A DNA stretch of 64,000 bases from an uncultured delta proteobacterium (GCA_963813785.1 CAWFAJ010000002.1:7654-71653), one strand, 5' to 3'. Shown: positions 996 to 48,300, numbered from the stretch's first letter. Program-made: numbers and translations. The notes: generated by a model not told the origin, from the sequence alone.

Positions 996-2441
996 TCAGA
1001 GTTCGGGACTCGAGGGCAGGAAGGTCTCGCCCATCAGGTAGGCATCGACGGCGCGCGCCGCTTCGCGCCCCTCCCATATCGCCCACACCACCAGCGATTG
1101 CCCGCGATGTGTGTCTCCGGCGGCGAACACTCCGGGCACGCTCGACATGTAATTCTCGCACTGCACGTTGCTGCGCGGGTCGAGCTTGACGCCAAGCTGC
1201 GAGATTATGCCCTCGGGCTCGGGGCCGAGAAATCCCAGAGCGAGCAGCACGAGGTCGCACTCGATCTCGAAATCGGTGCCTGGAATTTGCTCCATCACCA
1301 TCCGCCCGTTGTCATGCTTCCAGTTGAGCCGCGCACCGTGGAGTTTTTTCACCACGCCGTTTTCGCCGGAAAACCTGCTCGTGTTTACGCTCCAGTCGCG
1401 CTGCACGCCCTCTTCGTGGGAGCTCGAGGTGCGCATGATCATCGGCCAGTCGGGCCACGGCATCTCGGCGGTACGCTTTTCAGGCGGCATCGGGAGCAGT
1501 TCGAACTGATGCACGACGATCGCACCCTGGCGATTTGAGGTGCCCAGGCAATCGGAACCGGTATCGCCGCCGCCGAGAATGACCACGCGCTTTCCGTTCG
1601 CAGTGATCTCGGCCGCCGGATCGAGCGCGTCGCCGAAGTTACGCTTGTTCTGTTGCGGCAGGAATTCCATGGCAAAATGGATTCCCTTGAGCTCCCGTCC
1701 CGGGATCGGCAGGTCACGCGGCTTGGTCGCGCCCATCGCGAGTACGATGGCGTCGTACTTCGCACGCATCTCGTCCGCATGGATGTCGAAGCCGACGCGG
1801 CAGTTGGTGACAATCTCCAGGCCCTCGGCCTTCATTTGCTCAACGCGCCGGTTGACGATCCACTTTTCCAGCTTGAAGTCTGGAATGCCGTAAGTAAGCA
1901 ATCCGCCCACGCGATCCGATCGCTCGTAGAGCGTGACCGAATGTCCGGCGCGCGTGAGTTGCTGCGCGCAGGCCAGCCCCGACGGTCCCGAGCCTACGAC
2001 CGCAACGCGCTTTCCCGACTTGCGCGCGGGCGGCTGCGGCACGATCCATTTTTCTCCCCAGGCGTGATCGATGATGTTCTTCTCGATCAGCTTGATCGTG
2101 ACAGGATCGTTGTTGATGCTGAGGACGCAGGCTTCTTCGCAGGGCGCGGGGCAAACTCTGCCGGTGAACTCCGGAAAATTGTTGGTCGCATGCAGCCGGT
2201 CGATCGCCTCGCGCCAGCGGCCGCGGTAGATGAGATCGTTCCAGTCGGGGATGATGTTCCCGAGCGGGCAACCCTTGTGGCAGAAGGGAATGCCGCAATC
2301 CATGCAGCGGGCACCCTGCGCGCGCAGTTTGTCTTCGGGCATCTTGAGATCGAATTCGCGCCAATCCTTCAGGCGCTCCCCGACCGGACGCCGCGAAGGA
2401 GTCTCGCGCTTGATCTCCATGAAGCCCGTAATCTTGCCCAT
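996..2441 (-). CDS. gltD: glutamate synthase small (beta) subunit, NADPH-dependent
   Basis: The N-terminus [13 protein letters not shown]...CMDCGIPFC carries the Fe-S cysteines. The dinucleotide-binding motif [14 protein letters not shown] is present. It sits directly downstream of gltB. Confidence 0.9.
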
Positions 2442-2500: not shown

Positions 2501-5500
2501 CTAAACTGCGGCCAGCCGCGCGAGATCGGAATCCATGTTGAGATGCTGCCGTTCGAGCACCATCCGGTACTCAGTCGGCAATACTTTTACAAACTTCGCA
2601 GCATAGTCGTCCCACTTGTCGAGGACTCGCCGCGCGACCGTGCTCTGCGTGTACTGCAAGTGCCGCACTATCAGCGCATGCAACTGCTTGAGTTCGTCGC
2701 GATTGGCGATTGGACCCAACTCGACCATCCCGGGGTTGCAGCGCGACGGAAACGAGCCGTCTTCGTCAAGCACGTACGCGACGCCGCCGCTCATGCCGGC
2801 CGAGAAGTTGCGGCCGGTCTTGCCTAGAACCACGACCAACCCGCGCGTCATGTACTCGCATCCATGGTCGCCGACTCCCTCGACGACCGTGTGCGCGCCG
2901 CTGTTACGCACCGCGAATCGCTCGCCGGCTACGCCGCGGAAGAACGCTTCGCCGCCGGTGGCGCCATAGAGCGCGACGTTGCCGATAATGATGTTGTCCT
3001 CGGCCTTGAAGGTCGCTTCTTGCGGCGGCCGCACCGAGATAAATCCGCCCGAGAGTCCCTTGCCGCAATAGTCGTTCGCGTCGCCTTCGAGATGGAGCGC
3101 GATTCCCGGCGCGAGCCACGCGCCGAAACTCTGGCCGGCCGAACCTTTGAGATGAATCTGAACCGTGTAGGGCGGCAGTCCCTCCGCGCCGAAGCGCCGT
3201 GACACTTCCGCCGACAGCATCGTGCCGACGGTACGGTTCACGTTGCGGATGGGAAGATGGATTTCGACCGGCTTGCGATGCTCGAGCGCTTCTTTTGCAA
3301 GCTCGATGATCTGATTGTCGAGCGCGGCGCCAAGGCCGTGATCCTGGAGCTCGACACAATGCAGCGGTTCATCCGGCCCGACATCGGGACGGCGAAGAAT
3401 ATTGGCCAGATCGACGTTGCGTGCCTTCCAATGCGCGATCGCTTCGTTGGCGTCGAGGCATTCGACGTGGCCAACCATTTCGGCAACGGTGCGAAAGCCC
3501 AACTGCGCCATGTATTCGCGCAGTTCGTCCGCGATGAACATCATGAAGTTCACGACGTGCTCGGGCTTGCCCGAGAACTTCGCGCGGAGCACCGGATCCT
3601 GCGTCGCGATGCCGACCGGGCAGGTGTTGAGATGGCAAACGCGCATCATGATGCATCCCGAGGCAACCAGCGCGGCGCTGGCGAAACCGAATTCCTCGGC
3701 GCCGAGAAGGGCGGCGATGGCGATGTCGCGGCCGGTCTTGAGCTGGCCGTCGGTTTCGACGTGAATGCGTCCACGCAGACCGTTCATCACCAGGGTTTGC
3801 TGCGTCTCGGCGAGTCCCAGCTCCCACGGAACTCCCGCGTGCCTGATCGATTGCAGGGGAGACGCGCCGGTGCCGCCGTCGTAACCGCTGATCAGCACGA
3901 CGTCGGCCTTGGCCTTTGCGACTCCCGCGGCGATGGTGCCGACGCCGACCTCGGCGACCAGTTTGACACCGATGCGCGCGCGATTGTTGGAATTTTTGAG
4001 ATCGTGGATAAGCTGCGCAAGATCTTCGATCGAATAGATGTCGTGATGCGGGGGCGGAGAGATCAATCCCACGCCGGGCGTCGAGTAGCGAATCTTCGCG
4101 ATGAAATCGTCGACCTTGTGGCCGGGAAGCTGGCCGCCCTCGCCGGGCTTGGCGCCCTGCGCCATCTTGATCTGAAGTTCGTCGGCGTTGACCAGGTAAT
4201 GACTGGTGACGCCGAAGCGCGCCGAGGCCACCTGTTTGATCGCGCTGCGGCGCCAATCGCCGTTGGCATCGGGCACGAAGCGCGCCGGATCCTCGCCGCC
4301 CTCGCCGGTGTTGCTCTTGCCGCCTATCCGGTTCATGGCGATGGCGAGGTTTTCGTGCGCCTCTTTGCTGATCGATCCAAACGACATCGCGCCGGTTTTG
4401 AAACGTTTGACGATCTCGGTGGCCGGCTCGACTTCCTCGAGCGGCACGGGCGGCCGAACAGAATTGAACTTGAGCATCGAGCGAAGGGTGGTGAGCGAGC
4501 GACTCTGCTCGTCAACCGCCCTGGTGTAATCCTTAAACAGCCGGTAATTTCCCGAGCGCACGGAATGCTGCAGTCGGGCGATCGTGTTGGGGTTGTACAT
4601 GTGGAACTCGCCGGCGCGGCGCCACTGGTACTGGCCGCCGACATCGAGATCGCCATCGAGGTTCGCGGCCACCTTGAACGCGTAGGTGTGACGCGCAGCC
4701 GTCTCGCGCGCGATCGCGTCGAGGCCGACGCCTGCCACGCGCGACGGCGTCCAGGCGAAGTACTTGTCGATCACGTCCTTGGCCAACCCGATCGCCTCGA
4801 AGATCTGCGCGCCGCGATAACTCTGCGTCGTCGAGATCCCCATCTTGGACGCGACCTTGGTAATGCTTTTGGAGACGGCCTTGATGAAGTTGTGGACGGC
4901 GGTGTCTTCGTCGATGTCCCGGAGCTGGCCGTCGCGAATCATCCCCGCCATCGTCGCGTATGCGAGGTACGGATTGACGGCGCCCGCGCCGTAGCCGACC
5001 AGCAGGCAGAAATGCATCGCCTCGCGCGGTTCTCCCGACTCGACGACGAGGCCGGCCCGGGTGCGCGTCCCTTCGCGAATCAGATGATGATGCACGGCTC
5101 CGGTCGCGAGCAGCGCCGGAATGGCGGCGTAGTCCGCGTTCACGCCACGATCCGAAAGCACGATTATCGTGTAGCCGGATTCGATCGCGTCCGATGCGGC
5201 GCGGCAAAGCGCGTCGAGCGCGGCGCGAAGCCCGCCTTCGCCGTCATCAACGCGGTAGAGCGTGGGAAGCGTGACGGTGCGCAGGCCCGCGACGGCCAGC
5301 CGTTTTATCCTTTGAAGTTCCTGGTTGGTGAGAAGGGGCTGCTTGAGCTGGAGCTGGCGGCAATGGAGCGGCGATTCTTCGAACAGATTATCCTCGGCGC
5401 CGATTGTCGTTTCGGTCGAGGTCACCAGTTCCTCGCGAATCGGATCGATCGGCGGATTCGTCACCTGCGCGAACAATTGCTTGAAGTAGTTGTAAAGCAA

Positions 5501-7050
5501 CTGCGGTCTGTTCGAGAGGACGGCGAGCGGAGTGTCGGTGCCCATCGAGCCGACCGGCTCCTGGCCGTTGGTGGCCATCGGCGCGAGGATCATTTTGAGA
5601 TCCTCGATCGTATAGCCAAACGATTGCTGCTGTTTCAGCAGCTCGTGGCCTTCAAAGCAGTCAACCGCTGGCGCACCGCTTGCCTCGGGGAGCGACTCGA
5701 GTGCGACGAGATTGGCGTCGAGCCAGCTGCGATACGGCTGTCGCGCCGCCATCGAATTCTTGATTTCTTCGTCCTGCACAATTCGGCCAAGCGAGGTATC
5801 GACAAGAAACATTCGGCCCGGCTGCAGCCGCCCTTTGAGCGCGACGTTGCCCGGCGCGATGTCCAGGACGCCGGTCTCGGACGCCATCACGACCAATCCG
5901 TCCTTGGTCACCGTGTAGCGCGACGGACGAAGGCCGTTACGATCGAGCACCGCGCCGATTCTGATACCGTCAGTGAACGCGATCGACGCGGGGCCGTCCC
6001 ACGGTTCCATCATGCATGAATGAAAGCTGTAGAAAGCGCGCTTGCCGTCGCTCATCTGCGGGTCGTTCTGCCACGCTTCCGGAATCATCATCATCATGGC
6101 GTGCGGCAGCGAACGTCCGGTGCGAACCAGCAGCTCGAGACAATTGTCGAAGGTTGCGGAGTCGCTGCCGTTGGGCTCGACGATCGGCAACAGCTTCTTG
6201 ATGTCGTCGCCGAACAGCGGTGAAGAGAAAAGCTTCTCGCGCGCGTGCATCCAGTTGATATTGCCGCGCAGCGTGTTGATCTCGCCGTTGTGCGACATGA
6301 AGCGGTAGGGATGCGCCCGGTCCCAGCTCGGAAACGTGTTGGTCGAAAAGCGCTGATGGACCATCGCGAGCGCGGTCTTGATGGCGCCATTTAGCAAATC
6401 GGGGAAAAACTGCGGGATCTGCGTCGAGATGAGCTGACCCTTATAAACGATGGTCAGCGCCGAGAGGCTGCAGAAATAAAACAGTTCCGGATCGAAGAGG
6501 CCGAGTTTTCCCGCCTCTGAAGTGGCGCGCTTGCGAATTACGTACAGCTTGCGCTCGAGCGCCTCGGCGTCGGGCAAGTCCGGGCCGCGCGCAATGAAGA
6601 CCTGGCGGATTGCGGGCATCCCGCGCCGCGCGATATCGCCGCACGCCGATTGCACCACCGGCACGTCGCGCCATCCGAGCACACGCTGACCTTCCTCGTT
6701 GACGATTCTCTCGAACGCGTGCTCGCAATCTTTGCGCTTGACCGGGTCGAGCGGCAGGAAAACCTGGCCCACGCCGTATTCGCCGGGCGCGGGCAGTTCG
6801 AAGCCGAGCCGGGCCGCTTCGCTCGAGAAAAACTCGTGCGGAATCTGCAGCAGGATTCCAGCGCCGTCGCCCGTGCGCGGATCGCATCCGCACGCGCCGC
6901 GATGGGTCAGGTTGTCGAGCACCTGCAGCGCTTTAGCCACGATGTCATGCGAGCGCTCGCCCTTGATGTTGACGACGAAGCCGACGCCGCACGCGTCGCG
7001 CTCATGGGCGGGATCGTAGAGGCCCTGTGCCTTCGGAATGCTTCGGTAGT
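2501..7050 (-). CDS. gltB: glutamate synthase large subunit
   Basis: The ~1515-aa product begins MMHNYRS...[10 protein letters not shown], the Ntn amidotransferase catalytic Cys. FMN/Fe-S central domain and C-terminal GXGXG domain motifs are present throughout. The ORF track extends further upstream, but the homology starts at the ATGATG at 7050. Confidence 0.9.
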
Positions 7051-7056
7051 TGTGCA

Positions 7057-7620
7057 TCATGATACTCGTCTTGGTTCCGCGGGCGCAGGTTTCGCGGCGC
7101 CGTGGCGATGGCGCCTGCCGTTGGCAGGCTCGTACGAGTCGCCGTTGGGATGAACCGAGATCAGACCGCGCTCGGTATGCGTCGACAGCACCACCATCGT
7201 CTCCGTCCGCGCCACTCCCTCGATCGAGCGGATGGTACTGATAAGCCGCTCGAGCGACGAAGTGTTGTCGGTTTTGATTTTCAGCAGGAGGGTGTGCTGA
7301 CCGGTGACGTGATGGCATTCGAGCACGTCGTCGAGCAGTGCGACGGATTCCTTGAACAGCGAGATTGTTTTCGGATGCGAAATCGACACGCCGATAAACG
7401 CGGTGACGTCCTTGCCGAGGCGGGTCGCATCGACGGCGGCGTGATAGCCGGTGATAACTCCGCCGTCTTCGAGTTTTTTGACGCGTTCGTTGACCGACGG
7501 CGCCGAAAGCCCGACTTGCTCTCCGAGCTTGACGAACGGAATGCGTCCGTGTTCCTGCAGGAGGCCGATAATCTGCAGGTCAATGGCGTCGAGTTCGGGG
7601 GAATCTCCGCCGAATTTCAT
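7057..7620 (-). CDS. lrp: Lrp/AsnC family transcriptional regulator
   Basis: N-terminal HTH ([42 protein letters not shown]) followed by a RAM/AsnC_C effector domain. It lies immediately upstream of gltB. Confidence 0.8.
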
Positions 7621-7894
7621 AAGGTTATCCTCGTCGAGTGACGATGAAGATAGGCGAAAAGCGGGATTGTGTCAAGTGTTTATAAGGATTTGACGAAGTA
7701 AAACATGAGTTTGTTCAAGCCAACCTGACGAGGGCCGACGAAATATAGGCCGAAACGGTCGATTGCCGCTCACCTATGCTGCGATTCTTGGGGTGCAAGC
7801 GCGATCGCTCAGGCAACGCGCAGCTTGGGCCGAACCGTCGGCTAACATTGAAAGATGTTTTACGCAACTTTTACGCGGATTCGATATTTTCGCA

Positions 7895-9328
7895 CTACGA
7901 ATGTGGATAGGCGTCGCTTCCCATCTCAAGCGCATCCAGCCCCGACCATTCCACTTCCACCAGCACGCGGTTGCCCACCGTGCGCTCGACGATCTTGAAG
8001 AACAGGATCGCAAGGCCGAATACCACGACTATGTTCACCGTGACACCGATCAATTGGGCGAAAAATTGACCAGCGTCGCCGTAGAGCAGGCCGCGCACCG
8101 GACCCGCGACACCGTTCCATCCGTCGCCGTAGGTACCGTCGGCAAACAGACCAAGCGCCAGCGCGCCCCATATTCCGCACGCACCGTGCACGGCAACCGC
8201 GCCGACGGGATCGTCGATTCGAAAGCGGCGTTCGAGTTCAAGCACCGCCCACACGACCAGCAGTCCCGCGATCGCGCCAATCAGAACAGCCGCCGCGGGC
8301 GTTACGAATGCGCACGGGGCGGTGATTGCGACCAGTCCGCCCAGCAGACCGTTGCAGGCGATCGCGACGTCGGGTTTGTGATACTGATTCCACAAATAGA
8401 GCAGCGCCGCGAGCGCGCCGGCCGCCGAGGAGAGCATGGTGTTCACCGCGATGATCGCGATTCGCGGATCCGATGCGGCGAGCGTTGAGCCGGCGTTGAA
8501 GCCGAACCATCCGAACGCGAGAATCAACGTTCCGCTGATGGCCATGGGCAGGTTATGTCCAGGCAACGCGCCGATGGCGCCGTCGCGCCGGAACTTTCCG
8601 ATGCGCGGACCCACCATGTAAGCGCCGGCGAGACCGGCCATTCCGCCCGTCATGTGCACCACCGACGATCCGGCGAAATCCAGATGGCCGTGGCCCAGGC
8701 CCAGGTTCGCGCCGAGCTGCGAGAGCCATCCTCCGCCCCATACCCAGTTGCCGTACAACGGATACAGGAACATCGACATGAACAGTCCGTAGATAAAGAA
8801 CGCTTTGAACTTCCATCGCTCCGCCATCGCACCCGTCGGAATGGTCGCGGCGGTATCCATGAAAACAAGCGAGAATAGAAACATGCCCAGGCTGGCCGGA
8901 TCGCGACTGACACTGAGCAGCGCGAACTTGCTAAAGCCGATGATTCCATACGAATGCGCGCCGATCGTGATCGACAGCTCGTGATGGCCGATCGCGGCCA
9001 TGCCAAGCGAGGGCCAGTGCGCGACCCCGCCCATCATGAAGCCGTAGCCGGTGAGCCAGAAGCCGATGATGCCGATCGGGTAAATGATCAGGTTCATCGC
9101 CATGGTGTTGACCGCGTTCTTGGAGCGCGTGAACCCCGTCTCCACCATGGCGAATCCGAGCTGCATGAACATCACGAGGAACCCCGCGACCAGCAGCCAC
9201 GCGAGGTTCAGCGAATTGTCCAGCGGCGGCGACGACGCGGCGGTCTGCGCGCGCGCCAGCGACGAAAATAGCGTCAGCGCGGCGAAAGCGGCGGCGGCCA
9301 ATCCGAGTTGCGATCGTCTCGGCATCAT
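7895..9328 (-). CDS. amt: ammonium transporter (Amt family)
   Basis: Signal peptide and multiple TM segments; Amt signature regions such as FLVMFMQLGFAMVETG and DFAGSSVVHMTGG. Start placed at the ATGATG at 9328 (MMPRRSQ...). Confidence 0.9.
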   Translation of the reverse strand: MMPRRSQLGLAAAAFAALTLFSSLARAQTAASSPPLDNSLNLAWLLVAGFLVMFMQLGFAMVETGFTRSKNAVNTMAMNLIIYPIGIIGFWLTGYGFMMGGVAHWPSLGMAAIGHHELSITIGAHSYGIIGFSKFALLSVSRDPASLGMFLFSLVFMDTAATIPTGAMAERWKFKAFFIYGLFMSMFLYPLYGNWVWGGGWLSQLGANLGLGHGHLDFAGSSVVHMTGGMAGLAGAYMVGPRIGKFRRDGAIGALPGHNLPMAISGTLILAFGWFGFNAGSTLAASDPRIAIIAVNTMLSSAAGALAALLYLWNQYHKPDVAIACNGLLGGLVAITAPCAFVTPAAAVLIGAIAGLLVVWAVLELERRFRIDDPVGAVAVHGACGIWGALALGLFADGTYGDGWNGVAGPVRGLLYGDAGQFFAQLIGVTVNIVVVFGLAILFFKIVERTVGNRVLVEVEWSGLDALEMGSDAYPHS

Positions 9329-10341
9329 CTCACCTGCCCTCGATATGACCGGCGCGGGGGAGTCGGCGACGCCGGGTAACGGTTTGCAAGCCAAATCAGA
9401 AATACGAAAATTCCGATGAGCGATGTGAAAAACAGCACGTACCCTGCAGTACGACGCGCGCGTTGCAGCGCGAGGCTGCGTGGATGGAGGTCCTGCGCGC
9501 GTCCCTTGGGAACGACGCGCGACGGATCTTGCAGGTCCGCAAGCATCTCGGCTGCGCTCGCATAGCGGTCACGCGGAGAGCGCTCGATCGCGTGAAGGAT
9601 GATCTCCTCCAGACGCGGATCAAGATCGGGCTTGAATGCGGTTGGCGGCTGCGGATCTTCCGAAGTCTTCGCGCGCATCACGTTGTAAACGTTGGGCCCG
9701 GAGTGCGGCAGGTGGCCGGTCAGCATTTCGTAGAGAATCACGCCGAGCGAATAGATGTCGGTGCGAACGTCGCCGCGCCGGCCGCTGACCTGTTCGGGCG
9801 CCATGTAGTCGGGCGTGCCGATGGTCGATGACAGGCCGGACCACGTCAGCCGCCGCGCGGATTCGTCGAGTGCGATTCCGAAATCCATAACCTTGGTGCG
9901 GCCTTCGGCCGTCACCAGCACGTTTTCCGGCTTCAAATCGCGATGCACCACGCCTTCACCGTGCATGTACACCAGCGTCTCCGCCAACTGGCGTGCGAGA
10001 TCGAGCGCCTTTTCCACCGATAGCCCACCGGGTTCATGCATCATCGCGCGCAGCGAGGGACCCTCGACGTACTCCATCGCGATATACATGCGGCTTTTGC
10101 GCTTGGGTGCGAGGACCTTGATGATGCCGGGATGGTTGAGGCGGCGCCCGACTTCTTCTTCGCGCTGAAAGCGGCCGTAGAAGACCACGTCGCTCTCGAA
10201 CTGCATGTAGGGGACTTTGATCGCGACGGTCGCGCCGTCGACTTGATCGATAGCTTTGAAGATCGACGCCATCCCGCTGCGCGCGATCACCTCGATCAAT
10301 TTGTACTGATCGAGGTTTTCACCAACGCCGACCTCGCGCAT
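9325..10341 (-). CDS. eukaryotic-type Ser/Thr protein kinase with a C-terminal transmembrane anchor
   Basis: The HRDLKPENVL catalytic loop, DFG and APE motifs and the ATP-binding Lys (VAIKV) are present. A hydrophobic tail follows. The stop overlaps the amt start by 4 bp. Confidence 0.85.
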   Translation of the reverse strand: MREVGVGENLDQYKLIEVIARSGMASIFKAIDQVDGATVAIKVPYMQFESDVVFYGRFQREEEVGRRLNHPGIIKVLAPKRKSRMYIAMEYVEGPSLRAMMHEPGGLSVEKALDLARQLAETLVYMHGEGVVHRDLKPENVLVTAEGRTKVMDFGIALDESARRLTWSGLSSTIGTPDYMAPEQVSGRRGDVRTDIYSLGVILYEMLTGHLPHSGPNVYNVMRAKTSEDPQPPTAFKPDLDPRLEEIILHAIERSPRDRYASAAEMLADLQDPSRVVPKGRAQDLHPRSLALQRARRTAGYVLFFTSLIGIFVFLIWLANRYPASPTPPRRSYRGQVR

Positions 10342-10427
10342 TTTTCAGACCGTCTTGAGAAAAAGACGGTGAGCGGACGTTAACATCCGGCACGCAGGCA
10401 ATGGAAGGGGATGCGGCGTCAAACGCT

Positions 10428-11255
10428 TCATCGCCCGAACAGTCCTCGCAATCGATCGCGCCATCCGCCGGTGGCCGCCGTATGCCCGGTCGGCGACGTC
10501 ATTCTGAAGACCGCGCAGGTCAGATTGTCGGCAGTACCGCGCTTATTGGCCGTGTCGATCAAGTTGCGGCATCCCGTCTGGGGGTCAACGCCGCGCGTCA
10601 GTGATTCCAGCTCCTTGTCATCCAGGACATTGTACATCCCGTCGCTGCACAGTATCAGGCGATCGCGCTCCAGCAGCGGCATCGCGATCCGATCGATCGA
10701 CACGATCAACTCGTGTCCAAGACTGCGCAGAAGCATCCCGCGCTCCGGATGATTCTTCGCGCGCGCCGCCGACATCACGCCCATCCTGACCCGGTCGGCG
10801 ACCATCGTGTGATCTTTTGTGATTTGCGAGATTTGGCGGTGACGGATCAGATGCAGCCGGCAATCTCCGACGTGCACCGCCGACAGCATCCCCTTCTCCA
10901 CCGCAACCGCGGTCATCGTGGTCGCCATCCGGCCCAGCTCCGGGACGGTCAGCGCCTTGTCGTGAATCTCGATGTTGGCCCGGGTGATCGCGCGATGGAG
11001 CCGTTTGGCGGCGCCCCATGCTGGCGGACTCTCGCGGTAAGCCTCAAGAGTTATGTCGATCGCCATGCGGCTTGCGATTTCACCGCCTTCGTAGCCGCCG
11101 ACGCCGTCGGCAATCGCGAACACCACACTGTCGGGACTCTCGATGAAATGCCCGCACGAGTCTTCATTGTCGGGGCGGTCGGTGCCTACGTCGGACAACA
11201 GCGCCAATTCGAAAGCTTGCTCTACCGAAGCAGGAGCGGCGACCGACGAATCCAT
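10428..11255 (-). CDS. PP2C-family Ser/Thr protein phosphatase
   Basis: PP2C motifs: FAIADGVGG, metal-binding Asp residues, and DG near the C-terminus. Located upstream of the kinase on the same strand. Confidence 0.85.
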   Translation of the reverse strand: MDSSVAAPASVEQAFELALLSDVGTDRPDNEDSCGHFIESPDSVVFAIADGVGGYEGGEIASRMAIDITLEAYRESPPAWGAAKRLHRAITRANIEIHDKALTVPELGRMATTMTAVAVEKGMLSAVHVGDCRLHLIRHRQISQITKDHTMVADRVRMGVMSAARAKNHPERGMLLRSLGHELIVSIDRIAMPLLERDRLILCSDGMYNVLDDKELESLTRGVDPQTGCRNLIDTANKRGTADNLTCAVFRMTSPTGHTAATGGWRDRLRGLFGR

Positions 11256-11308: not shown

Positions 11309-11340
11309 GGGGCGGGCCGCGCTCCCACGCGGCCCGCCCC
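11309..11340 (-). terminator. perfect 13-bp-stem hairpin downstream of the permease pseudogene
   Basis: GGGGCGGGCCGCG-ctccca-CGCGGCCCGCCCC; located about 30 bp past the permease stop. Confidence 0.5.
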
Positions 11341-11370: not shown

Positions 11371-13042
11371 TCAGGCCGGCTTGGTTACCAGAATCGTCTC
11401 TTTGCCCCGCTTCTTGGAATTACGCATGAAGTAAACCGCGCCGTAGATTCCCCAAATCGCGGCAGATCGCGACCGCCATCAGCGGTTCCTTCACGCTGCC
11501 GAGCCCCTCCAGCGGTCCGATGATGTAGAACGCGAGGCAGGCAAAGTTCGCGACCGCGCCGAACACCGGCACCACCATGTGCTTGAATCCATGGAACTCG
11601 TGACGCTCCGAGTAGGCCACGATGCACACGATGTTGGTCAGACCGTAGAGCAGGAAGGTTCCGAAGTTTGAAGTGAGAGTGACCAGCAGCAACCCGTTGG
11701 GCAACGACGAGAGCGACGCGTTGGAGCTCATTCCGAGCGCGTACCACAGGTTGTGCGGCAGCGTCGCAATCGTCTTGTCATCAGGCGCCGATCCGCCGGC
11801 GAAGTAGAACAGCGCGGCGTATGCGCCGAGGACTGCCGATATCGTTGCAAGCACCCAAATCGCGCGATGCGGCGTCAGGTTCTGGCCGTGCAGAAGACCG
11901 AAGTGCTCGGGCACTTCCTCGTCGCGGCCCATCGCGTAGGTCACGCGCGCGCCGGTGTTGATGCACGACAGCGTGGTGCCGATCAGCGCCAGAAAAACCG
12001 TCAGCGCTTCCATCAGCATGAACGCCTGCCGTGTCCGCCGAGCAGCGCGTTGCCGATGATCACCATCATGTCGCCGAGCGGAGCCGCCGAACCTTTGGCC
12101 TCCGCAAGACTGTAGGCGCTGTTCAGGAAATAGTTGGCCGCGAAGTATTCGATCAGGTAGCAGAACAACCCCTGGATCGTCAGCGACAGCAGAACGCCGC
12201 GCGGGATGTCCTTTTTGGGGTTCTTCGCTTCCTCGCCAAGCGCGGTCACCGACTCGAAGCCGACCAGCAGCAGAATCGCGACCGTTGCCTGCAGCATCAC
12301 CCAGTCAAACCGGTGCGGCAGGATGACCGAGAGTGCGCTGGCGTGCGACGGGTGGTCGCCGGTAATGCCGTAGGGCCCAGGGTCGCAGCGATCGTGTTGC
12401 CATTGGCGTCGAGCGCCAGGCCCGCCGAGCCTGCGGGATGCCCGGCACGGTAAGCGATCGCAAGCGCCGCAGAAGAACAGCAACGCGACGATCTGGACTC
12501 CGTTGATCCCGATATTGACGATGCGTGGAACCGTTGACTCCCCGGAACGCGATCCATGCCACGGCGTAAGCGAAAATTATCGCAATTATCGCCATGAATA
12601 CCGGGCCGGGGATTCCCGCGTTCATCGTGCTCGGCGCGACCGTGCCGACGATGTATCCGATCATGATGCCCATCGTGGCGACCATGACTCCGGGATACAT
12701 CCAGTAATACAGATGCGACGACCATCCGATTACGAACTTGGCCACGCGCGCGAACTTGTACGCGTGGGTTTTGCTCAGGAAGGCCTGCTCCGCAAACAGA
12801 TACGAACTGCCCGCGCCCGGATAGAGTTTGGCGAGCTCTGCGTACGAAATTGCGGTCGCGTACGCCAGCATCAGCGCGACGAAAATACCGGCCCACATCG
12901 CCATCCCCGACGGAAACGCGTAACCCGCCTGCTGGACGAATGTAATCCACAGGAAGGCTCCTGGGGCGATGAGCGCCATGGCGTTAACCGTGACCCCGGT
13001 CAAGCCCAGCGTCGGCACCATCTTTTTCTGTTCTTCAGCCAT
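11371..13042 (-). pseudogene. APC-superfamily amino-acid permease interrupted by at least 5 frameshifts
   Basis: Recognisable APC permease sequence is spread over three reading frames (ORFs 12305..13042, 12013..12483, 11420..12019). An authentic C-terminus (WGIYGAVYFMRNSKKRGKETILVTKPA*) sits in a fourth frame ending at 11371. Frame switches were traced by hand near 12524, 12470, 12385, 12020 and 11460. Confidence 0.7.
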
Positions 13043-13346
13043 CTTGCCTCCTTCAATTCATGGCGGAGCGGTTGTCCCCCGCGCGCACGCGTGGCTCCCG
13101 TTACGGGCGGGAGCATGAAGAAGGCTCAAAGCAGGAAAAGTGCCACTTCATAATCGAGTGAGTATTGATGAAAAATGCAACGTGCCTGCTCAAACGACAG
13201 GCATCCGCTTATCAGGCAGTCATCAGCGCCACGCCACGGCAGTCAACGGTCAATCCACCGATATTGACGCGCCGCGGGAAAAATGACTCTGCTATGCTGC
13301 GCCGCAGTTCAGTCTATACTTGACGATCCGTCCGCTGGAGGAATCT

Positions 13347-13931
13347 ATGCCGCGTCCGAGCGTCCGCCGCCACTGTTCACGAACGTTGACTGCCGCGAGT
13401 CCGTCGCCGGCGAGCGCGCGCCGCGTTGCCCTTGCGGCGCTGACGATTCTGCTCGCATGCGCGACCTCCTCTTGCAATTCGCAGTCGTTCCAACAATCTC
13501 CGGGGCCATCGATGCCGATGCTTCCGCCTGCTCCCGTGCAGCCGCCCGCGCAGCCGATGAACGTGGCGAGGTTGCTCAACGGAAACTGGATGGCCACCTA
13601 TCCGGGCGGCCCGCTTCGAGTGGTTATCGGTCTGGACCCGATGTTACGCGGCCGCAATTACGTCGCGACGCTGGTGGACGGCAACAAAGATATCCCGCCG
13701 GGCAATGTCGTGTGGCGCGGAACACTGGATCAGCACGTGCCGGGCATCGTGGTCGCCGATCAGATATGCGCCGAGCGTGGGTTCCAGCAGGCGCGATGGG
13801 TGAAGGCGCGAATTATCGTCAGTGACGCGAGCAATTTCCGCGAAGAACTCGTCAATCCAAGCGACTGCCACGGATTCCCGGTAAAGTTCACCCGCATCGG
13901 ACCCGCGCCGACAGCCCCGGTCAAAGATTGA
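13347..13931 (+). CDS. hypothetical secreted protein or lipoprotein
   Basis: GGAGG ribosome-binding site 4 bp upstream of the ATG. RR-containing N-region then a hydrophobic stretch LTILLAC. No recognisable domain. Confidence 0.5.
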   Translation: MPRPSVRRHCSRTLTAASPSPASARRVALAALTILLACATSSCNSQSFQQSPGPSMPMLPPAPVQPPAQPMNVARLLNGNWMATYPGGPLRVVIGLDPMLRGRNYVATLVDGNKDIPPGNVVWRGTLDQHVPGIVVADQICAERGFQQARWVKARIIVSDASNFREELVNPSDCHGFPVKFTRIGPAPTAPVKD

Positions 13932-13945
13932 CGGCGCCGTCGCGC

Positions 13946-15139
13946 TTACACGAGCATCCCGGCCTGCACCACGACGGGTCCGTCGCTCTTGGGAATATTC
14001 GGCTCGGGTTTGCGCTTCATCGCCTTTTCCAGGATCGGCGCCATCCGCTCGGCCTTCTGCCTGGCGCGCTTTTGTTCGCGCTCCTTGAACTCGGGCATGA
14101 CCTTTTCGGCGAACAGGCTGAGCGACGAGCAGATGTCCTCGTGCTTGTTGTTGCCCGCCTGCGAGATGAACACCACCTGGTCAACGCCGGCTTGCTCGAA
14201 TTCGCCAAGGCGCGTGCGAATCTGGTCGGGCGTTCCGACGCATGAGTTCGCCCCGTCCATACCCGGCAAATTGATCGGGCTGGTTTTGAAATTGTTCCAG
14301 ATACTCGTTTTGCCCGGCTGGTGCTGGCCAAACGCATAATGATGGCCAAGGGCGTACCCGAAAAACTTCAGCCCCTCTTCGCCCATCTTGCGCGCCCGCT
14401 CGGCGTCGTTGTCGCACATGAAGCCGGTGACGATCGCGATGTTCGCATTGACCGCGTATCCGATCGGCTCGCACTCATTCTCGAGCGTCGTGTAATAGTC
14501 GTTGACCCACTCCCGCGCCTCCTGCGGCGATACGAACGCGAACGTCAGCGCGCCGATTCCAAGCTTGGCCGCCAGATGAATCGTCTCGCGCCGCGAGCAT
14601 GCGACCCACAGCGGTGGATGCGGTTTCTGCACCGGCTTGGGCACCACGTTACGCACCGGCATCTTGAAGTACTTGCCCTCATGACCAAGAAACGGCTCCT
14701 CGACAAACATTCGCGCGATCGCACCCAGCGACTCCTGCCACATCGCGCGCTTGTCCGCGCGCGGGATGCAAAACCCGCCCAGCTCCAGCTCCGCCGACGA
14801 TTCACCGGTGCCGAACTCGACCCGCCCGCCGCTCACCAAATCCAGCGTCGCGATCCGCTCCGCGACGCGCGCCGGATGGTTGTAGCCCGGCGGCAGCAAC
14901 ACGATTCCGTGACCGAGCCGAATCTGCCTGGTGCGCTGACTCGCCGCGGCCAGGAAAATTTCGGGCGCCGACGAATGCGCGTACTCCTCGAGGAAGTGAT
15001 GCTCCACTTCCCACATATGGTCGAGGCCGAGCCGGTCCGCGAGTTCGACCTGATCGAGCGCATCCTGGAAGAGCTTCAGCTCCGCGCCCTCCTTCCATGG
15101 ACGCGGCAGCTGATGTTCATAAAAGGTTCCCAACTTCAT
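13946..15139 (-). CDS. LLM-class (luciferase-like) flavin/F420-dependent oxidoreductase
   Basis: 397 aa. Typical LLM N-terminus (MKLGTFYEHQLPRP...LGLDHMWEVEHHF) and a TIM-barrel-length sequence. Confidence 0.8.
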   Translation of the reverse strand: MKLGTFYEHQLPRPWKEGAELKLFQDALDQVELADRLGLDHMWEVEHHFLEEYAHSSAPEIFLAAASQRTRQIRLGHGIVLLPPGYNHPARVAERIATLDLVSGGRVEFGTGESSAELELGGFCIPRADKRAMWQESLGAIARMFVEEPFLGHEGKYFKMPVRNVVPKPVQKPHPPLWVACSRRETIHLAAKLGIGALTFAFVSPQEAREWVNDYYTTLENECEPIGYAVNANIAIVTGFMCDNDAERARKMGEEGLKFFGYALGHHYAFGQHQPGKTSIWNNFKTSPINLPGMDGANSCVGTPDQIRTRLGEFEQAGVDQVVFISQAGNNKHEDICSSLSLFAEKVMPEFKEREQKRARQKAERMAPILEKAMKRKPEPNIPKSDGPVVVQAGMLV

Positions 15140-38764: not shown

Positions 38765-38840
38765 GCCACCCTAGCTCAGTTGGTAGAGCAGCTGATTCGT
38801 AATCAGCAGGTCGCCGGTTCGAATCCGGCGGGTGGCTCCA
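38765..38840 (+). tRNA. tRNA-Thr (anticodon CGT)
   Basis: 76-nt cloverleaf. Acceptor stem GCCACCC/GGGTGGC, D-arm GCTCAGTTGGTAGAGC, anticodon loop TTCGTAA, T-arm GCCGGTTCGAATCCGGC, CCA end encoded. Confidence 0.85.
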
Positions 38841-44805: not shown

Positions 44806-47800
44806 CTACATGGTTGCCGATTCCGTCAGGAGCGCCTTGGCGTCCTTAAGATCGGGCGTATCGAATCCCTCGGTGAACCAACCGTAAACCGACTCCAAAG
44901 TCTTGCGAGCCGATTGCGGATTGCATTGTTTGCGCTTGAGACGGTAAAGGCTCATCGCGGTCCGCAGCTCCCATGACTTCGCGCTCTGGCGCCGCGCGAC
45001 TTCCAGGCTCTTCATGAAGGCTGCTTCCGCACTCGCCTCCTGCGGACGGGTCAGCGCGAGCAAAAGCGCGCCTTTAAGCCGGTACAACTCGGCTTCGTAG
45101 TATTCCTCGCGGGTGCTGGCAACCTCGGCGAGACCCTCGCTGATGGCTTCGAGGCCTTGCTCAGGGTGGCCGGACTTCGCCAGCGCGTCGGCCAGCAGTC
45201 CTTGCTGATGAGGGCCTGTCACGGGGGCTCCCAAGGCGCGACATGCGTCCTTCGCGCCACGCAGTACAGCTACAGCCTCCTCAGACTGCCCGAGCTGGTT
45301 CAGCGCCCATCCGAGGCTGAATCGAGTAGCCAACAAGAGGAAGGCGAATCCATGCTCCGTCGAGAGGGCGAGACCTTCATCAGCGAGTTGTTTGCCCAAT
45401 GGAATGTCGCGGAGCAACTGGCAGAGGGCGGCCCCGTACGTCTTGGCGTACGCAAGACTGAATTTGTGAGACAGCCCGCTAGCCAGCATGAAGCAGTCGC
45501 GCTGCCTTGAAAGCGCTTGTTCAGGATAGCCTTGAAACCACAAGATCCAAGGCAGAACGGAGCCCGCGACGATACCGGGGTCCTGACCGTAGGCCAGCGC
45601 ATGGCCTTGGTGACTGCGCGGATCGTAAATCGACAACACTTTCTCGAAATGGGAGCGCGCCCGGGCAAGATCGCAGCCTCCGTAGAATGCGTTCTGTCCG
45701 CTCACTGCATGCGCTTCCAGAAGCAGATCCGGGTCGCGCTGACGTTCGGCCAGACTCAGAAGCTGACGGCCGATTTCCTGGGAGTCTCGATACTCGGCGC
45801 GGACGAGATAATAGCCCCACAAGCCATAAAGCACCGGGTAAAGCTGCGGAGTATCTCCGAATCCGGCGCATAGTTCGCGCGCGCGGCTGAACGCGCCCTC
45901 CACATCCGGCGACGAGTAACCCTTCGCGAACATCAACGATTGCCCAAGGTTTAACTGCAGACCAAGTTCCAACTGATCGCGCTGCGGGCCGGCGGCGATC
46001 GCCGGCAGCAATTCCAGACCTGAAGTGAAATGAGCTATTGCGTCGGCATAGGCGGAGCGTGCTGCTACCTTCTGCCCGGCCAGGTAAAAGTACGGTGCGG
46101 CTTTGTTCGCGTCGGACCCGCGTGAGTAGTGGCGCGCGAGCTCTTCGACGTAATCGTCTAAGTGATTGGCAAACGTCGCCTCGATCGCTTCACCGATGCG
46201 GAGGTGTAGCGCCTTGCGCCGTTCGGCAAGCACCGAGCCGTAGGCCACTTCCTGCGTCAGCGCGTGTTTGAAGACGTATGCGGCATCGGGGAACGTCGGC
46301 AGCTCGTGGATGAACTCCGCCAATTGCAGGCTGGCGAGCATTCGCTGGAGATCCTCACCGTCCGTCGCCGCGACCTGCTCGATCAGGGCGAGTGGAATTT
46401 CCTTGCCAATCACCGCGAGCGTTTGCAGCAATTCCTTTTCCCTGGGGACACGCCGGTCGATGCGCGAGGCAAGTATTCCCCGAACGGTCGGCGGGATACG
46501 CAACTCCGCCAGCGGCTTCGCGAGTCTCACGGCGCCATCGCGCACCAGTGCGCTCTCTTCGAACATCGATTGGACGATCTCCTCCATGAAAAACGGATTG
46601 CCATCGGTCTTTTCGACGATGAGCCGTTTCAGTCCGGACAGGTCGTCGTCGCCGTGCTTTGCAGGGGCGGATCGGGAACCGTCCGCCGCCGCGAACACGC
46701 GCGCGTGTCGGGCGTCTTCGCGTTCGCCACTGTGCTCCTGGTCAGGCAGAGGAAAGGAAGTGTCGAGCAGCGCGGACAGCATCTCCTCGGCGCTGTCCTT
46801 GCCGAGCGGATCGAGCCGCAGCTGCGTGTAGTAGGTCTTGCTTCCCCATTCGTGGTGATACTCGGGGCGATAGTTGACCAGCAGCAGAATCCGCGTGTTG
46901 GCGATTGCCTCTGCCAACATGTTCAACAGTGCCTGGCTCTCGCCGTCTATCCAGTGCAGGTCTTCGAAGATCAGCATCATCGGCTGCTCGCGGCTCTCGC
47001 GCAGCAGCAGGTTCTTCACCGCTTCCAGGGTTCGCCGTCGTTTGAGCTGCGGTTCCATCCCCGCGAGCGTGTTGCTCTCGTCCGTCACGCCGATAAGCGC
47101 AAACAGATAAGGGAGGGTTGTTTCCAGGGCGCGGTCCAGGGTCATCACCCTGCCGCTGACCTTCTCACGGCGCTTGCCATGGTCGTCTTCGGGCGTGATT
47201 TCGAAATAATCTCTGAGCAAATCAACCACCGGCAGATACGCCGGAGCCTTTGCGTGGGAGACCGAGAAGGTTTCGAGCAGCATCCAGCCCGACTGATTCC
47301 TGGCTTTGAACTCGTGGAACAGGCGCGATTTGCCGACTCCGGGCTCGGCCATCGCCGCCACGATTTGTCCGCGCCCTTGCTTTGCAAGCTCCGCGGCATG
47401 CGTCATCGCCTCGATCTCGCGCTCGCGTCCGACGAACTTCGTGAGTCCGCGTCCCGCTGACCGCTGCAGTCGGGTGCGCAGCGGTCCCAGCCCGGTAACT
47501 TCGTATACCTCGACCGGCTCGCTGATGCCCTTGATGCGCGCGGGGCCAAGCGCCTTCAGCGTGAAGTACCCCTCGACCAGCTTGCGGGTCGCCTCGGTGA
47601 TCGCAGTTGCACCAGGATGGGCCAGGGTCTGCATTCGCGCGGCGAGATTGGCGGTGTGTCCAATCGGCGTGTACTCGACATTGCCGCCGCCGGTGGCAAT
47701 CGAGCGCACCACGACCTCGCCGGTGTTGATTCCAATCCTGATCAGCAAGGGCGCGCGGCCCTCTCCCTGGAGCCTCTCTCCGTAGCGGCGCAGCTCTTCC

Positions 47801-48300
47801 TGAATGCGCAGCGCCGCATAAAGCGCACGCTGCGGATGGTCCTCGTCCGCGATCGGTGCGCCGAACAGCGCGAAGATGCCGTCGCCCGTGGACTGCACTA
47901 CGTAACCGTCGTACCGATGGACCGCATCGATCATGAGCTTCAACGCTGGGTCAATAATCGCGCGCGCCTCTTCCGGATCGAGGTCTTCCTCCAGTGCGGT
48001 GGAGCCCTTGATGTCGGCGAACAGCGCCGTCACGGTCTTGCGCTCGCCGTCGACGACGAGCGAGGAATCCGATTGCTCCTGCGTAACAAGGATGCCGGAC
48101 GCGGCGGGTTCGGTTATAGAAGCTTTAGGCGCATTCGCTGCAGCCGTGTCGACGAGAGTGGCTCCGCATTCTCCGCAGAACTTCTCGCCGGGTTCGTTGG
48201 ATGCGCCGCAGCGCGTACAGCTGGTCGAAATCGGAGCGCCGCATTGCGCACAGAATTTGCGCCCTCCCCGGTTCTCACCTCCGCATTTCGTGCAACGCAT
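44806..48300 (-). CDS. multidomain signalling protein: double zinc-ribbon, class-III adenylate/guanylate cyclase, STAND/AAA ATPase and TPR repeats
   Basis: N-terminal CxxC x4. Cyclase-domain motifs FADIKGSTAL, VQSTGDGIFALFGAP, IRIGINTGEVVV. P-loop AEPGVGKSRL. A long helical TPR-like C-terminus. 1164 aa. Confidence 0.85.
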   Translation of the reverse strand: MRCTKCGGENRGGRKFCAQCGAPISTSCTRCGASNEPGEKFCGECGATLVDTAAANAPKASITEPAASGILVTQEQSDSSLVVDGERKTVTALFADIKGSTALEEDLDPEEARAIIDPALKLMIDAVHRYDGYVVQSTGDGIFALFGAPIADEDHPQRALYAALRIQEELRRYGERLQGEGRAPLLIRIGINTGEVVVRSIATGGGNVEYTPIGHTANLAARMQTLAHPGATAITEATRKLVEGYFTLKALGPARIKGISEPVEVYEVTGLGPLRTRLQRSAGRGLTKFVGREREIEAMTHAAELAKQGRGQIVAAMAEPGVGKSRLFHEFKARNQSGWMLLETFSVSHAKAPAYLPVVDLLRDYFEITPEDDHGKRREKVSGRVMTLDRALETTLPYLFALIGVTDESNTLAGMEPQLKRRRTLEAVKNLLLRESREQPMMLIFEDLHWIDGESQALLNMLAEAIANTRILLLVNYRPEYHHEWGSKTYYTQLRLDPLGKDSAEEMLSALLDTSFPLPDQEHSGEREDARHARVFAAADGSRSAPAKHGDDDLSGLKRLIVEKTDGNPFFMEEIVQSMFEESALVRDGAVRLAKPLAELRIPPTVRGILASRIDRRVPREKELLQTLAVIGKEIPLALIEQVAATDGEDLQRMLASLQLAEFIHELPTFPDAAYVFKHALTQEVAYGSVLAERRKALHLRIGEAIEATFANHLDDYVEELARHYSRGSDANKAAPYFYLAGQKVAARSAYADAIAHFTSGLELLPAIAAGPQRDQLELGLQLNLGQSLMFAKGYSSPDVEGAFSRARELCAGFGDTPQLYPVLYGLWGYYLVRAEYRDSQEIGRQLLSLAERQRDPDLLLEAHAVSGQNAFYGGCDLARARSHFEKVLSIYDPRSHQGHALAYGQDPGIVAGSVLPWILWFQGYPEQALSRQRDCFMLASGLSHKFSLAYAKTYGAALCQLLRDIPLGKQLADEGLALSTEHGFAFLLLATRFSLGWALNQLGQSEEAVAVLRGAKDACRALGAPVTGPHQQGLLADALAKSGHPEQGLEAISEGLAEVASTREEYYEAELYRLKGALLLALTRPQEASAEAAFMKSLEVARRQSAKSWELRTAMSLYRLKRKQCNPQSARKTLESVYGWFTEGFDTPDLKDAKALLTESATM

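Follow-up and report, generated by a model that had tools for sequence, protein, structure and literature searches.

In the literature consulted here, fast control of ammonium uptake in bacteria is described only as the plugging of the transporter AmtB by the PII protein GlnK, except for ammonium transporters (Amts) fused to histidine-kinase or GGDEF outputs (PMC10433425, PMC11152129), and the sole regulatory partners that a 2023 review of prokaryotic Amts mentions are GlnK and the histidine-kinase fusion of Ks-Amt5 (PMC10433425). The locus described here, found in a 64,000-nucleotide stretch of DNA recorded as coming from an uncultured delta proteobacterium (CAWFAJ010000002.1:7654-71653; the whole stretch is called the window below), joins an amt gene to the genes of a eukaryotic-type (Hanks-type) Ser/Thr kinase and of a PP2C-type phosphatase. 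Its source is a soil bacterium of the family Binataceae; orthologues of the kinase, 338 amino acids long and 75-98% identical, are numerous and, where their source is named, come from Candidatus Binatus or Binataceae. What is new is an Amt with a dedicated, genetically coupled kinase/phosphatase, which is a variant of the known pairing of an Amt with its regulator. The literature search returned no report of a bacterial Ser/Thr kinase-Amt or PP2C-Amt system, nor of Ser/Thr phosphorylation of a prokaryotic Amt, and the titles and abstracts of the Binatota literature hold nothing relevant to a kinase-Amt link. What the data establish is a conserved module associated with nitrogen; they do not establish a mechanism. 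The reading preferred here, put forward tentatively and as somewhat short of probable, is that the locus represents the Binataceae form of a widespread, undescribed nitrogen-linked Ser/Thr phospho-switch, in which the kinase and the phosphatase would reversibly phosphorylate the coupled Amt and thereby functionally replace GlnK.

With glnK-amtB, the locus shares a dedicated regulator gene tightly linked, and often translationally coupled, to amt, and it may share an expression under nitrogen limitation, to which a sigma-54-like motif would point here; besides, the sister clade of the Amts concerned still has glnK downstream. It differs in that PII is missing and that the regulator is a Hanks kinase with a PP2C, encoded upstream and not downstream of amt. 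Plant AMT1 is controlled by phosphorylation of a C-terminal Thr and yeast Mep2 by phosphorylation, as outlined in PMC6760267, PMC4852598 and 10.1101/2020.11.03.367383. The window Amt belongs to the same AMT1-like branch (MQxGFA; its closest relatives in the Protein Data Bank fall in the cluster of plant AMT1), and its candidate sites would likewise fall within the C-terminal trans-activation region, which is cytoplasmic and conserved. However, the kinases are unrelated (a bacterial tail-anchored Hanks kinase as opposed to CIPK and Npr1), the Amt C-terminus is here very short, the operon also encodes a phosphatase of its own, and the bacterial system is a prediction from sequence. In Ks-Amt5 (Amt-histidine kinase) and Sd-Amt1 (Amt-HAMP-GGDEF), an Amt is also genetically joined to a cytoplasmic signalling enzyme, whereas the enzyme is here a separate Ser/Thr kinase encoded upstream.

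Two further systems link Ser/Thr phosphorylation to nitrogen. In Actinobacteria, the Hanks kinase PknG governs nitrogen and glutamate assimilation through GarA/OdhI, with a link to GOGAT, which recalls the gltBD genes lying downstream of the module in Binataceae; PknG is nevertheless a soluble, multidomain protein that acts via an FHA protein, whereas the gltBD linkage described here is lineage-specific and Lrp-gltBD has its own sigma-70-like promoter. None of the neighbouring genes examined was noticed to encode an FHA protein, although no dedicated search for one was made. The PknG/OdhI system is mentioned in PMC2784874. In the cyanobacterial PII Ser49/PphA system, a PP2C and a Ser/Thr kinase activity are tied to nitrogen signalling, and several PIIs encoded next to the module carry Ser49, but PphA, which dephosphorylates PII-P, is a stand-alone soluble PP2C, the window has no PII, and Ser49 does not go with the module. 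The PII kinase that is the counterpart of PphA has been reported as unidentified (PMC11863333).

Conservation of the kinase-amt coupling

Seven genes follow one another on the minus strand from 13042 to 996, namely those for an APC-type permease, the PP2C, the kinase, the Amt, an Lrp-type regulator, GltB and GltD. The order PP2C-kinase-amt and the position of Lrp-gltB-gltD downstream on the same strand, both given in the original prediction, are confirmed by Pfam and NCBIfam profiles for the former and by the gene assignments in the window for the latter. At the junction, which reads ...GGG CAG GTG AGA TGA TG..., the kinase stop TGA (9327-9325) and the amt ATG (9328-9326) overlap as ATGA, as had been claimed, and a Shine-Dalgarno-like hexamer, AGGTGA, stands directly 5' of the overlap. 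The amt open reading frame (ORF) can extend to an alternative TTG at 9394, but the ATG is preferred because an ATG at -4 occurs in nearly every Binataceae relative (at least 19 of the 21 Binataceae loci having amt offer one) and because it yields a signal-peptide-like N-terminus. In the Polyangia loci L028, L029 and L031 an ATG or GTG stands at -4, and in the remaining Myxococcota junctions the two genes lie within 20 nucleotides of each other. An overlap of 4 nucleotides is by itself common in bacteria; what goes beyond chance is its conservation over many species-level genomes.

The surroundings of the kinase gene were compared in the 80 best-matching species-level loci that code for a relative of it, and also around two orthologues. 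Tblastn searches with Amt, PP2C, PII, Lrp, GltB/D, permease and GlnA, rather than curated gene calls, served to score synteny; the loci were grouped by the identity of their kinase to that of the window, and taxon names are those of the database records. Among the 22 Binataceae loci (kinase at least 66% identical), 21 have amt directly downstream of the kinase, 19 a separate PP2C gene upstream and 20 the permease. In Myxococcota (55-62%; Polyangia and Anaeromyxobacter), amt lies directly downstream in 11 of the 14 loci, and one further contig ends at the kinase. The adjacency of kinase and amt is hence conserved in related taxa and clearly not peculiar to one strain, the same arrangement being present on independent contigs. 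The other 44 loci (below 55%) come from Verrucomicrobiota, Planctomycetota, Nitrospirota, Acidobacteriota, Gemmatimonadota, Eremiobacterota, Desulfobacterota and Chloroflexota: amt follows the kinase directly in 2 of the 33 that could be assessed, Amt, PII and GlnA are encoded within 10 kb in 20, 14 and 6 loci, respectively, and the permease is adjacent in 30. Over the whole sample, an Amt is found within 10 kb in 53 of the 80 loci, whereas random 20-kb intervals should contain one in roughly 1% of cases by our own estimate, which assumes 2-3 amt genes per genome of ~6 Mb, and the association of the kinase with Amt, PII, GlnA or permease persists over about ten phyla despite rearrangements.

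In terms of selection, the ratio of nonsynonymous to synonymous substitution rates (dN/dS) is 0.08-0.24 over kinase, PP2C and amt (0.13-0.16 for PP2C and 0.08-0.15 for amt). Since all three genes are thus under purifying selection, the window amt is not a decaying paralog.

The genes of the module are rearranged yet clustered in Anaeromyxobacter: in Anaeromyxobacter oryzisoli SG63 (L038 5769-12540), PP2C is followed by Amt2 on one strand and the kinase by Amt1 on the other, with a gap of 3 nucleotides, while the permease gene is convergent.

A family of tail-anchored kinases with a cognate PP2C

The window kinase displays the Hanks-type motifs VAIK39-42, HRDLKPEN133-140, DFG153-155 and APE181-183 within a kinase domain of residues ~15-266, which is followed by a conserved juxtamembrane stretch, a single transmembrane (TM) helix and a tail of ~17 amino acids. 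The C-terminal membrane anchor proposed earlier corresponds to the one C-terminal hydrophobic segment, residues 301-319 (YVLFFTSLIGIFVFLIWLA), which is the top hydropathy window of the protein (mean Kyte-Doolittle 2.42). A hydrophobic segment occupies the equivalent site in nearly all aligned kinase relatives, from all phyla sampled, and the tail after it comprises 2-6 residues in the family members outside Binataceae. Neither a Pfam scan nor the alignment of 79 family members revealed an extracytoplasmic sensor domain in the kinase.

In this alignment, K42, E61, HRD133-135, N140, DFG153-155, T166 and GTPDYMAPE are invariant or nearly so, and RRLT in the activation loop is invariant. The G-loop (residues 19-30; 10287-10252, minus strand) is atypical (ARSGMAS), as it reads IARSGMASIFKA instead of GxGxxGxV. 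Because the corresponding pattern, [IL][AS]RSGMA[ST]I[FY]KA, is conserved in the 79 members from ~ten phyla, this odd G-loop is a family signature and not a defect. Taken together, the shared G-loop, the RRLT motif, the intact catalytic residues, the TM anchor and the lack of a sensor point to a recognisable subfamily of kinases that are predicted to be active and tail-anchored.

The window PP2C, which exceeds both Pfam cut-offs for this family (Table 1), is the split counterpart of the N-terminal half of a PP2C-kinase fusion present in other phyla, where both domains form one ORF of ~600 amino acids in 32 of the 44 loci (confirmed by Pfam for L052); this fusion is predicted to be a membrane-tethered bifunctional kinase/phosphatase. 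In the fusions L052 9206-10966 and L076 9185-10984, for instance, the TM anchor is C-terminal, and the conserved permease usually precedes such genes. While the original prediction was correct in all particulars of the locus itself, it overlooked both this fusion and the APC-type permease upstream, the most conserved partner of the module.

Two more specific identities were considered and rejected. The kinase is not a Stk1/PknB-type PASTA kinase, as NF033483 scores 288 bits against a cut-off of 450, over the kinase domain only and without PASTA repeats, and the PP2C is not a Stp1/IreP equivalog, since NF033484 scores 205 bits, below the cut-off of 230. The module therefore resembles Stk1/Stp1 pairs in the adjacency of its PP2C and kinase genes and in having Stk1 and Stp1 as the top-scoring NCBIfam models of its two proteins, but differs from them by its sub-cut-off scores, the lack of PASTA repeats, the virtual absence of any extracellular part, and another G-loop and genomic context.

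The coupled transporter and its possible control

The window Amt exceeds the cut-offs of both of its profiles (Table 1) and belongs to the MQxGFAxxE (AMT1-like) branch, with an N-terminus resembling a signal peptide. The pore motifs WVWGGG (195), LDFAGS (216), VVHMTGG (223), GWFGFNAGS (273) and AVHGACG (379) are present, and we take them, as judged by eye, to hold the AmtB positions of the recruitment Trp/Ser, the Phe gate, the twin His and the Asp. The closest solved structures are Ks-Amt5 (6eu6, 2e-66) and Sd-Amt1 (8qj3, 8e-62), ahead of AmtB (3e-50). The short C-terminal region ends 3 residues past an AY motif, with no fused signalling domain.

The 61 Amts of the sampled loci were placed in a simple neighbour-joining tree, built without support values, in which the kinase-coupled Amts of Binataceae and Myxococcota form one clade. 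No Amt of this clade has a co-directional adjacent PII gene, the sole one nearby (L033) being convergent. The Amts of the sister clade are encoded 0.4-1.4 kb downstream of a fused PP2C-kinase in Nitrospirota, Geomonas and Desulfobacteraceae, and GlnK follows in 3 of 6 cases. The C-terminus of the coupled clade is short and highly conserved (GNRVxxEVEW[S/T]GLDxLEMG[S/T][D/E]AYPxx). In the window it reads EVEW-S-GLDALEMG-S-DAYPHS and offers two candidate sites, S462 (codon 7945-7943) and S471 (codon 7918-7916). Column 471 is Ser/Thr in 32 of 32 coupled Amts and in 0 of the 29 others, in which Glu is commonest; column 462 is Ser/Thr in 26 of the 32 coupled Amts and mostly Glu elsewhere. As the coupled Amts form a single clade, these counts do not stand for independent events.

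Some close relatives (L002, at 4574-6742, as well as L006, L007 and L026) encode a second, very different Amt of 496-520 amino acids and ~40% identity about 1 kb upstream of the permease; it has a long charged C-terminal extension and is followed by an ORF of 154 amino acids without Pfam match. This pair is not present in the window.

According to the preferred reading, the core of the system would be a tail-anchored Hanks kinase with its cognate PP2C, fused in most phyla and split in Binataceae and Myxococcota, and this core would be encoded with nitrogen-uptake proteins (the APC-type permease, an Amt and often PII) under a promoter of sigma-54 type. Translational coupling of the kinase gene to an AMT1-like Amt without adjacent GlnK would then have arisen in Binataceae and Myxococcota. 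The membrane-tethered kinase would phosphorylate the short cytoplasmic C-terminal trans-activation region of the Amt, with S471 and S462 as candidates, the PP2C would reverse this phosphorylation, and the switch would stand in for GlnK, which provides canonical AmtB with rapid post-translational gating. The Amt as substrate, the phospho-sites, the direction of the effect and the signal setting the balance between kinase and phosphatase are what we infer here. This reading is preferred because of the start/stop coupling, the complementary distribution of GlnK and the clade-specific Ser/Thr at positions where canonical Amts are acidic, and because PP2C, kinase and amt are intact in the window though PII is missing and the permease is broken.

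Several points nevertheless weigh against it. The phosphorylation of the Amt is a prediction, drawn from alignment columns and gene order. The Ser/Thr signature belongs to a single clade and may reflect a change inherited once, not something that function requires. Across phyla, the module has the permease (57 of 80 loci), and not Amt directly, as its most constant neighbour, so that Amt could be a late add-on. Since a PII gene persists beside the module in some relatives, the module is no strict replacement of PII. A kinase devoid of a sensor needs an input, and a transporter serving as sensor would fit at least as well. Finally, the position that we take to be equivalent to T460 of plant AtAMT1;1 (GxDxT motif) is Leu467 here (G463-L-D-A-L467), although this comparison is a weak argument.

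Should the preferred reading hold, a kinase/phosphatase hard-wired to Amt in two phyla would amount to a third logic of ammonium-uptake control. The same kinase subfamily stands beside nitrogen-uptake or PII genes in ~eight more phyla, and many carriers belong to soil lineages that are abundant and for the most part uncultured (Binatota, Verrucomicrobiota, Acidobacteriota, Nitrospirota and Planctomycetota). A wider proposal, conceivable but on balance doubtful, is that the RSGMA-type tail-anchored PP2C-kinase family constitutes an unrecognised, phylum-spanning nitrogen signalling system, working at the membrane with APC permease and Amt, which would have displaced GlnK as the post-translational controller of an Amt in Binataceae and Myxococcota, would be a bacterial counterpart of the phospho-regulation of AMT/Mep proteins in plants and fungi, and possibly also acts on Ser49 of PII. 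The locus may also bear on which kinases phosphorylate PII. The two candidate phospho-sites of the Amt, the signature-bearing kinase and the cultured carriers Anaeromyxobacter oryzisoli SG63 and Geomonas sp. Red32 are available as test objects.

The main rival explanation, which we regard as unlikely though to be taken seriously, reverses the direction of the signal: the Amt, or the APC permease in other phyla, would sense a ligand on behalf of the sensor-less kinase/phosphatase, its occupancy or flux would be relayed through membrane contacts to the kinase, and PII, assimilation enzymes or regulators would then be phosphorylated, the whole resembling a split Ks-Amt5 or Sd-Amt1. The architecture of the kinase, with a TM anchor but no extracytoplasmic domain and with anchor and juxtamembrane motif conserved across phyla, is consistent with such a role, and so are the translational coupling, which suggests a stoichiometric complex, and the kinase-phosphatase fusion, which implies a switch governed by an external input. 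In addition, the two ammonium receptors are the nearest solved relatives of the Amt, and further Amt-based signalling systems are anticipated in the literature (PMC11152129). This similarity may, however, only reflect the large AMT1-like branch (~30% of Amts), and the pore-residue motifs make the protein look like a working transporter. More precisely, Pfluger et al. proposed for ammonium receptors the N1/N2 signature QX6EX15NX2D[F/T]X54-60TX2[S/T] (PMC11152129). The window Amt, which reads Q-x6-E-x15-N-LI-I-Y...TAAT with Ile in place of Asp and Tyr in place of F/T, departs from it, so that it was not retained as a receptor-type Amt. The transducing Lys/Arg preceding the Asn in receptors is Met in the window and in all kinase-coupled Amts, which share the Ile-Tyr as well, and the regular expression of the signature matches 0 of the 61 Amts of the sampled loci.

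A second alternative places PII at the centre: PP2C and kinase would set the phosphorylation of Ser49 in the PII T-loop, and Amt and permease would be nearby as PII-regulated proteins. It finds some footing in gene order, as PII immediately precedes permease-PP2C-kinase in Verrucomicrobia (L052, L054-L056, L060) and permease-PP2C-kinase-amt in the Binataceae loci L010, L021, L086 and L087, while L025 has Amt-PII-Amt just upstream of the module. The claim that the module stands instead of a PII gene is true of the window, in which no PII gene was found when GlnB and GlnK of E. coli and a PII of Binataceae served as tblastn queries, but it does not extend to Binataceae, which do carry PII, several of them beside the same module. 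Many of the PIIs adjacent to the module have Ser49 (YRGSEY), and that of L025 has Thr49. Ser49 was nonetheless discarded as a marker of the module: in Verrucomicrobia both module-linked and Amt-linked PIIs carry it, whereas Ala49 is found in the module-linked PIIs of Planctomycetia and L060, and in the GlnKs after Amt in Nitrospirota and Geomonas. The residue therefore tracks lineage, not module. Furthermore, PII occurs within 10 kb of the kinase in merely 19 of the 80 loci, the window retains the module without any PII in 64 kb, and no cyanobacterial member is among the best 80 genome hits. We consider this alternative improbable.

Several observations concern the PII genes themselves. A weak, probably spurious PII-like tblastn hit of 41 amino acids at 47297-47419 (E 0.003) was dismissed; it falls inside a large protein at 44806-48300 (minus strand) with a double zinc ribbon, an adenylate/guanylate cyclase and an AAA_16 domain. 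No PII gene adjoins amt in the window and no ORF lies between amt and Lrp, unlike in L070, L074, L076 and L077, where PII is adjacent to amt. The window shares the left flank of L086 (amidase, TetR regulator, luciferase-like monooxygenase) but lacks a ~6 kb block of it (2583-8634: DsbD_N, cyclase/amidohydrolase, nitroreductase and PII), which is replaced by ~960 bp at 13025-13987 holding only an ORF of 180 amino acids without Pfam match (13283-13825, plus strand). The succession of PII and a DUF1646 membrane protein recurs in Binataceae: L090 8001-9383 has Amt-PII-DUF1646, and in L088 8001-10534 both PII-Amt and PII-DUF1646 are next to the kinase, PII-DUF1646 directly preceding a family kinase of 337 amino acids with no permease, PP2C or Amt call directly beside this group.

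Still less probable is a scenario in which the real partner, whether target or sensor, is the APC permease, and amt is a passenger that entered the operon in an ancestor of Binataceae and Myxococcota because permease and amt both respond to nitrogen limitation. The permease does adjoin the module in 57 of the 80 loci, which makes it the most widely conserved neighbour, and its identity across phyla (50-66%) exceeds that of the kinase (45-53%); besides, a sigma-54-like motif usually precedes the permease or PII-permease. When intact, it has ~552 amino acids, and intact orthologues match PF13520 and PF00324; its only relatives in the Protein Data Bank are distant (CAT1 and GkApcT, E ~1e-9), and its kinship to cationic amino-acid transporters is likewise distant. 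In the window, however, three single-base indels relative to L006 and L003 disrupt the gene and leave four segments, each in another frame than the one before, which are 70-91% identical to the intact L003 orthologue, with the lowest value in a variable stretch. These breaks are either a very recent pseudogenisation or an assembly error, whereas the nearby gltB, amt, kinase and PP2C are all intact. The permease is absent from L008 and L025, in which kinase-amt is intact and constrained as it is in the window, half of the Myxococcota loci have amt with no permease nearby, and it is amt, not the permease gene, whose start overlaps the kinase stop.

Lastly, that a general Stk/Stp-like pair serving the cell envelope or growth control stands beside amt by chance is very improbable, for although Stk1/PknB and Stp1 are the best models and 4-nucleotide overlaps are common between unrelated adjacent genes, this would leave aside the absence of PASTA or any other extracellular domain, the distinct conserved G-loop and the association with nitrogen genes over ~ten phyla, including the excess of neighbouring Amts given above.

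Layout and transcription signals of the locus

The features of the locus are collected in Table 1. No second amt, kinase or PP2C gene was found in the 64-kb window, and an Rfam scan of the whole window gave a tRNA at 38765-38837 (plus strand) as its sole match, with no riboswitch or leader near the locus.

Table 1. Genes and sequence signals of the kinase-amt locus, in window positions
Feature	Position	Strand	Basis
gltD	996-2441	-	profile/ORF assignment in window
gltB	2501-7060	-	profile/ORF assignment in window
Lrp/AsnC regulator	7057-7620	-	profile/ORF assignment in window
Sigma-70-like promoter TTGACA-17-TATCTT	7647-7675	-	10/12 consensus matches
Ammonium transporter amt, 477 amino acids	7895-9328	-	PF00909 371.9 bits (cut-off 23.2); TIGR00836 384.9 bits (cut-off 343.3)
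Candidate phospho-acceptors S462 and S471, cytoplasmic C-terminal region of Amt	7916-7945	-	alignment columns
Coupling junction, AGGTGA (9335-9330) and ATGA (9328-9325)	9325-9335	-	sequence reading
Hanks-type Ser/Thr kinase, 338 amino acids	9325-10341	-	Pkinase 157 bits
C-terminal TM anchor of kinase, residues 301-319	9385-9441	-	hydropathy
PP2C-type Ser/Thr phosphatase, 275 amino acids, soluble	10428-11255	-	PF13672 55.5 bits (cut-off 24); PF00481 38.1 bits (cut-off 20.3)
Perfect 13-bp GC-rich inverted repeat	11309-11340	-	between permease and PP2C, without T tract
APC-superfamily permease, uncharacterised subfamily, frame-disrupted	11374-13042	-	tblastn with intact L003 orthologue
Sigma-54-type promoter-like motif TGGCACTTTTCCTGCT	13130-13145	-	88 nucleotides upstream of permease start

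The motif TGGCACTTTTCCTGCT is one of three matches in the window, with one mismatch, to the sigma-54 -24/-12 element TGGCAC-N5-TTGCW, and the only well-placed one, lying upstream of the permease; immediately 5' of PP2C, kinase or amt, the window has no such motif at up to two mismatches. The same class of motif stands ~90-260 nucleotides upstream of the permease, PII-permease or amt in 23 related loci from several phyla, compared to ~4 expected by chance anywhere in the scanned ranges. A scan for intrinsic terminators between the genes gave nothing convincing; the 13-bp GC hairpin between permease and PP2C was not called one and is possibly an attenuator or an mRNA-stabilising hairpin.

The Lrp-gltBD link pointed out in the original prediction is present in the window but is Binataceae-specific and not a general feature of the module, as Lrp-gltB lies within 10 kb downstream in 14 of the 22 Binataceae loci, 0 of the 14 Myxococcota loci and 1 of the 44 other loci, with variable spacers. 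Since Lrp is preceded by its own sigma-70-like promoter, situated in the 275-nucleotide gap between amt and Lrp, Lrp-gltBD is argued to be a separate transcription unit. Within it, the Lrp stop and the gltB start likewise overlap as ATGA (7057-7060), so that the regulator and the large subunit of glutamate synthase appear to be translationally coupled; in the relatives L002 and L003, this junction is a 1-nucleotide overlap or a 2-nucleotide gap.

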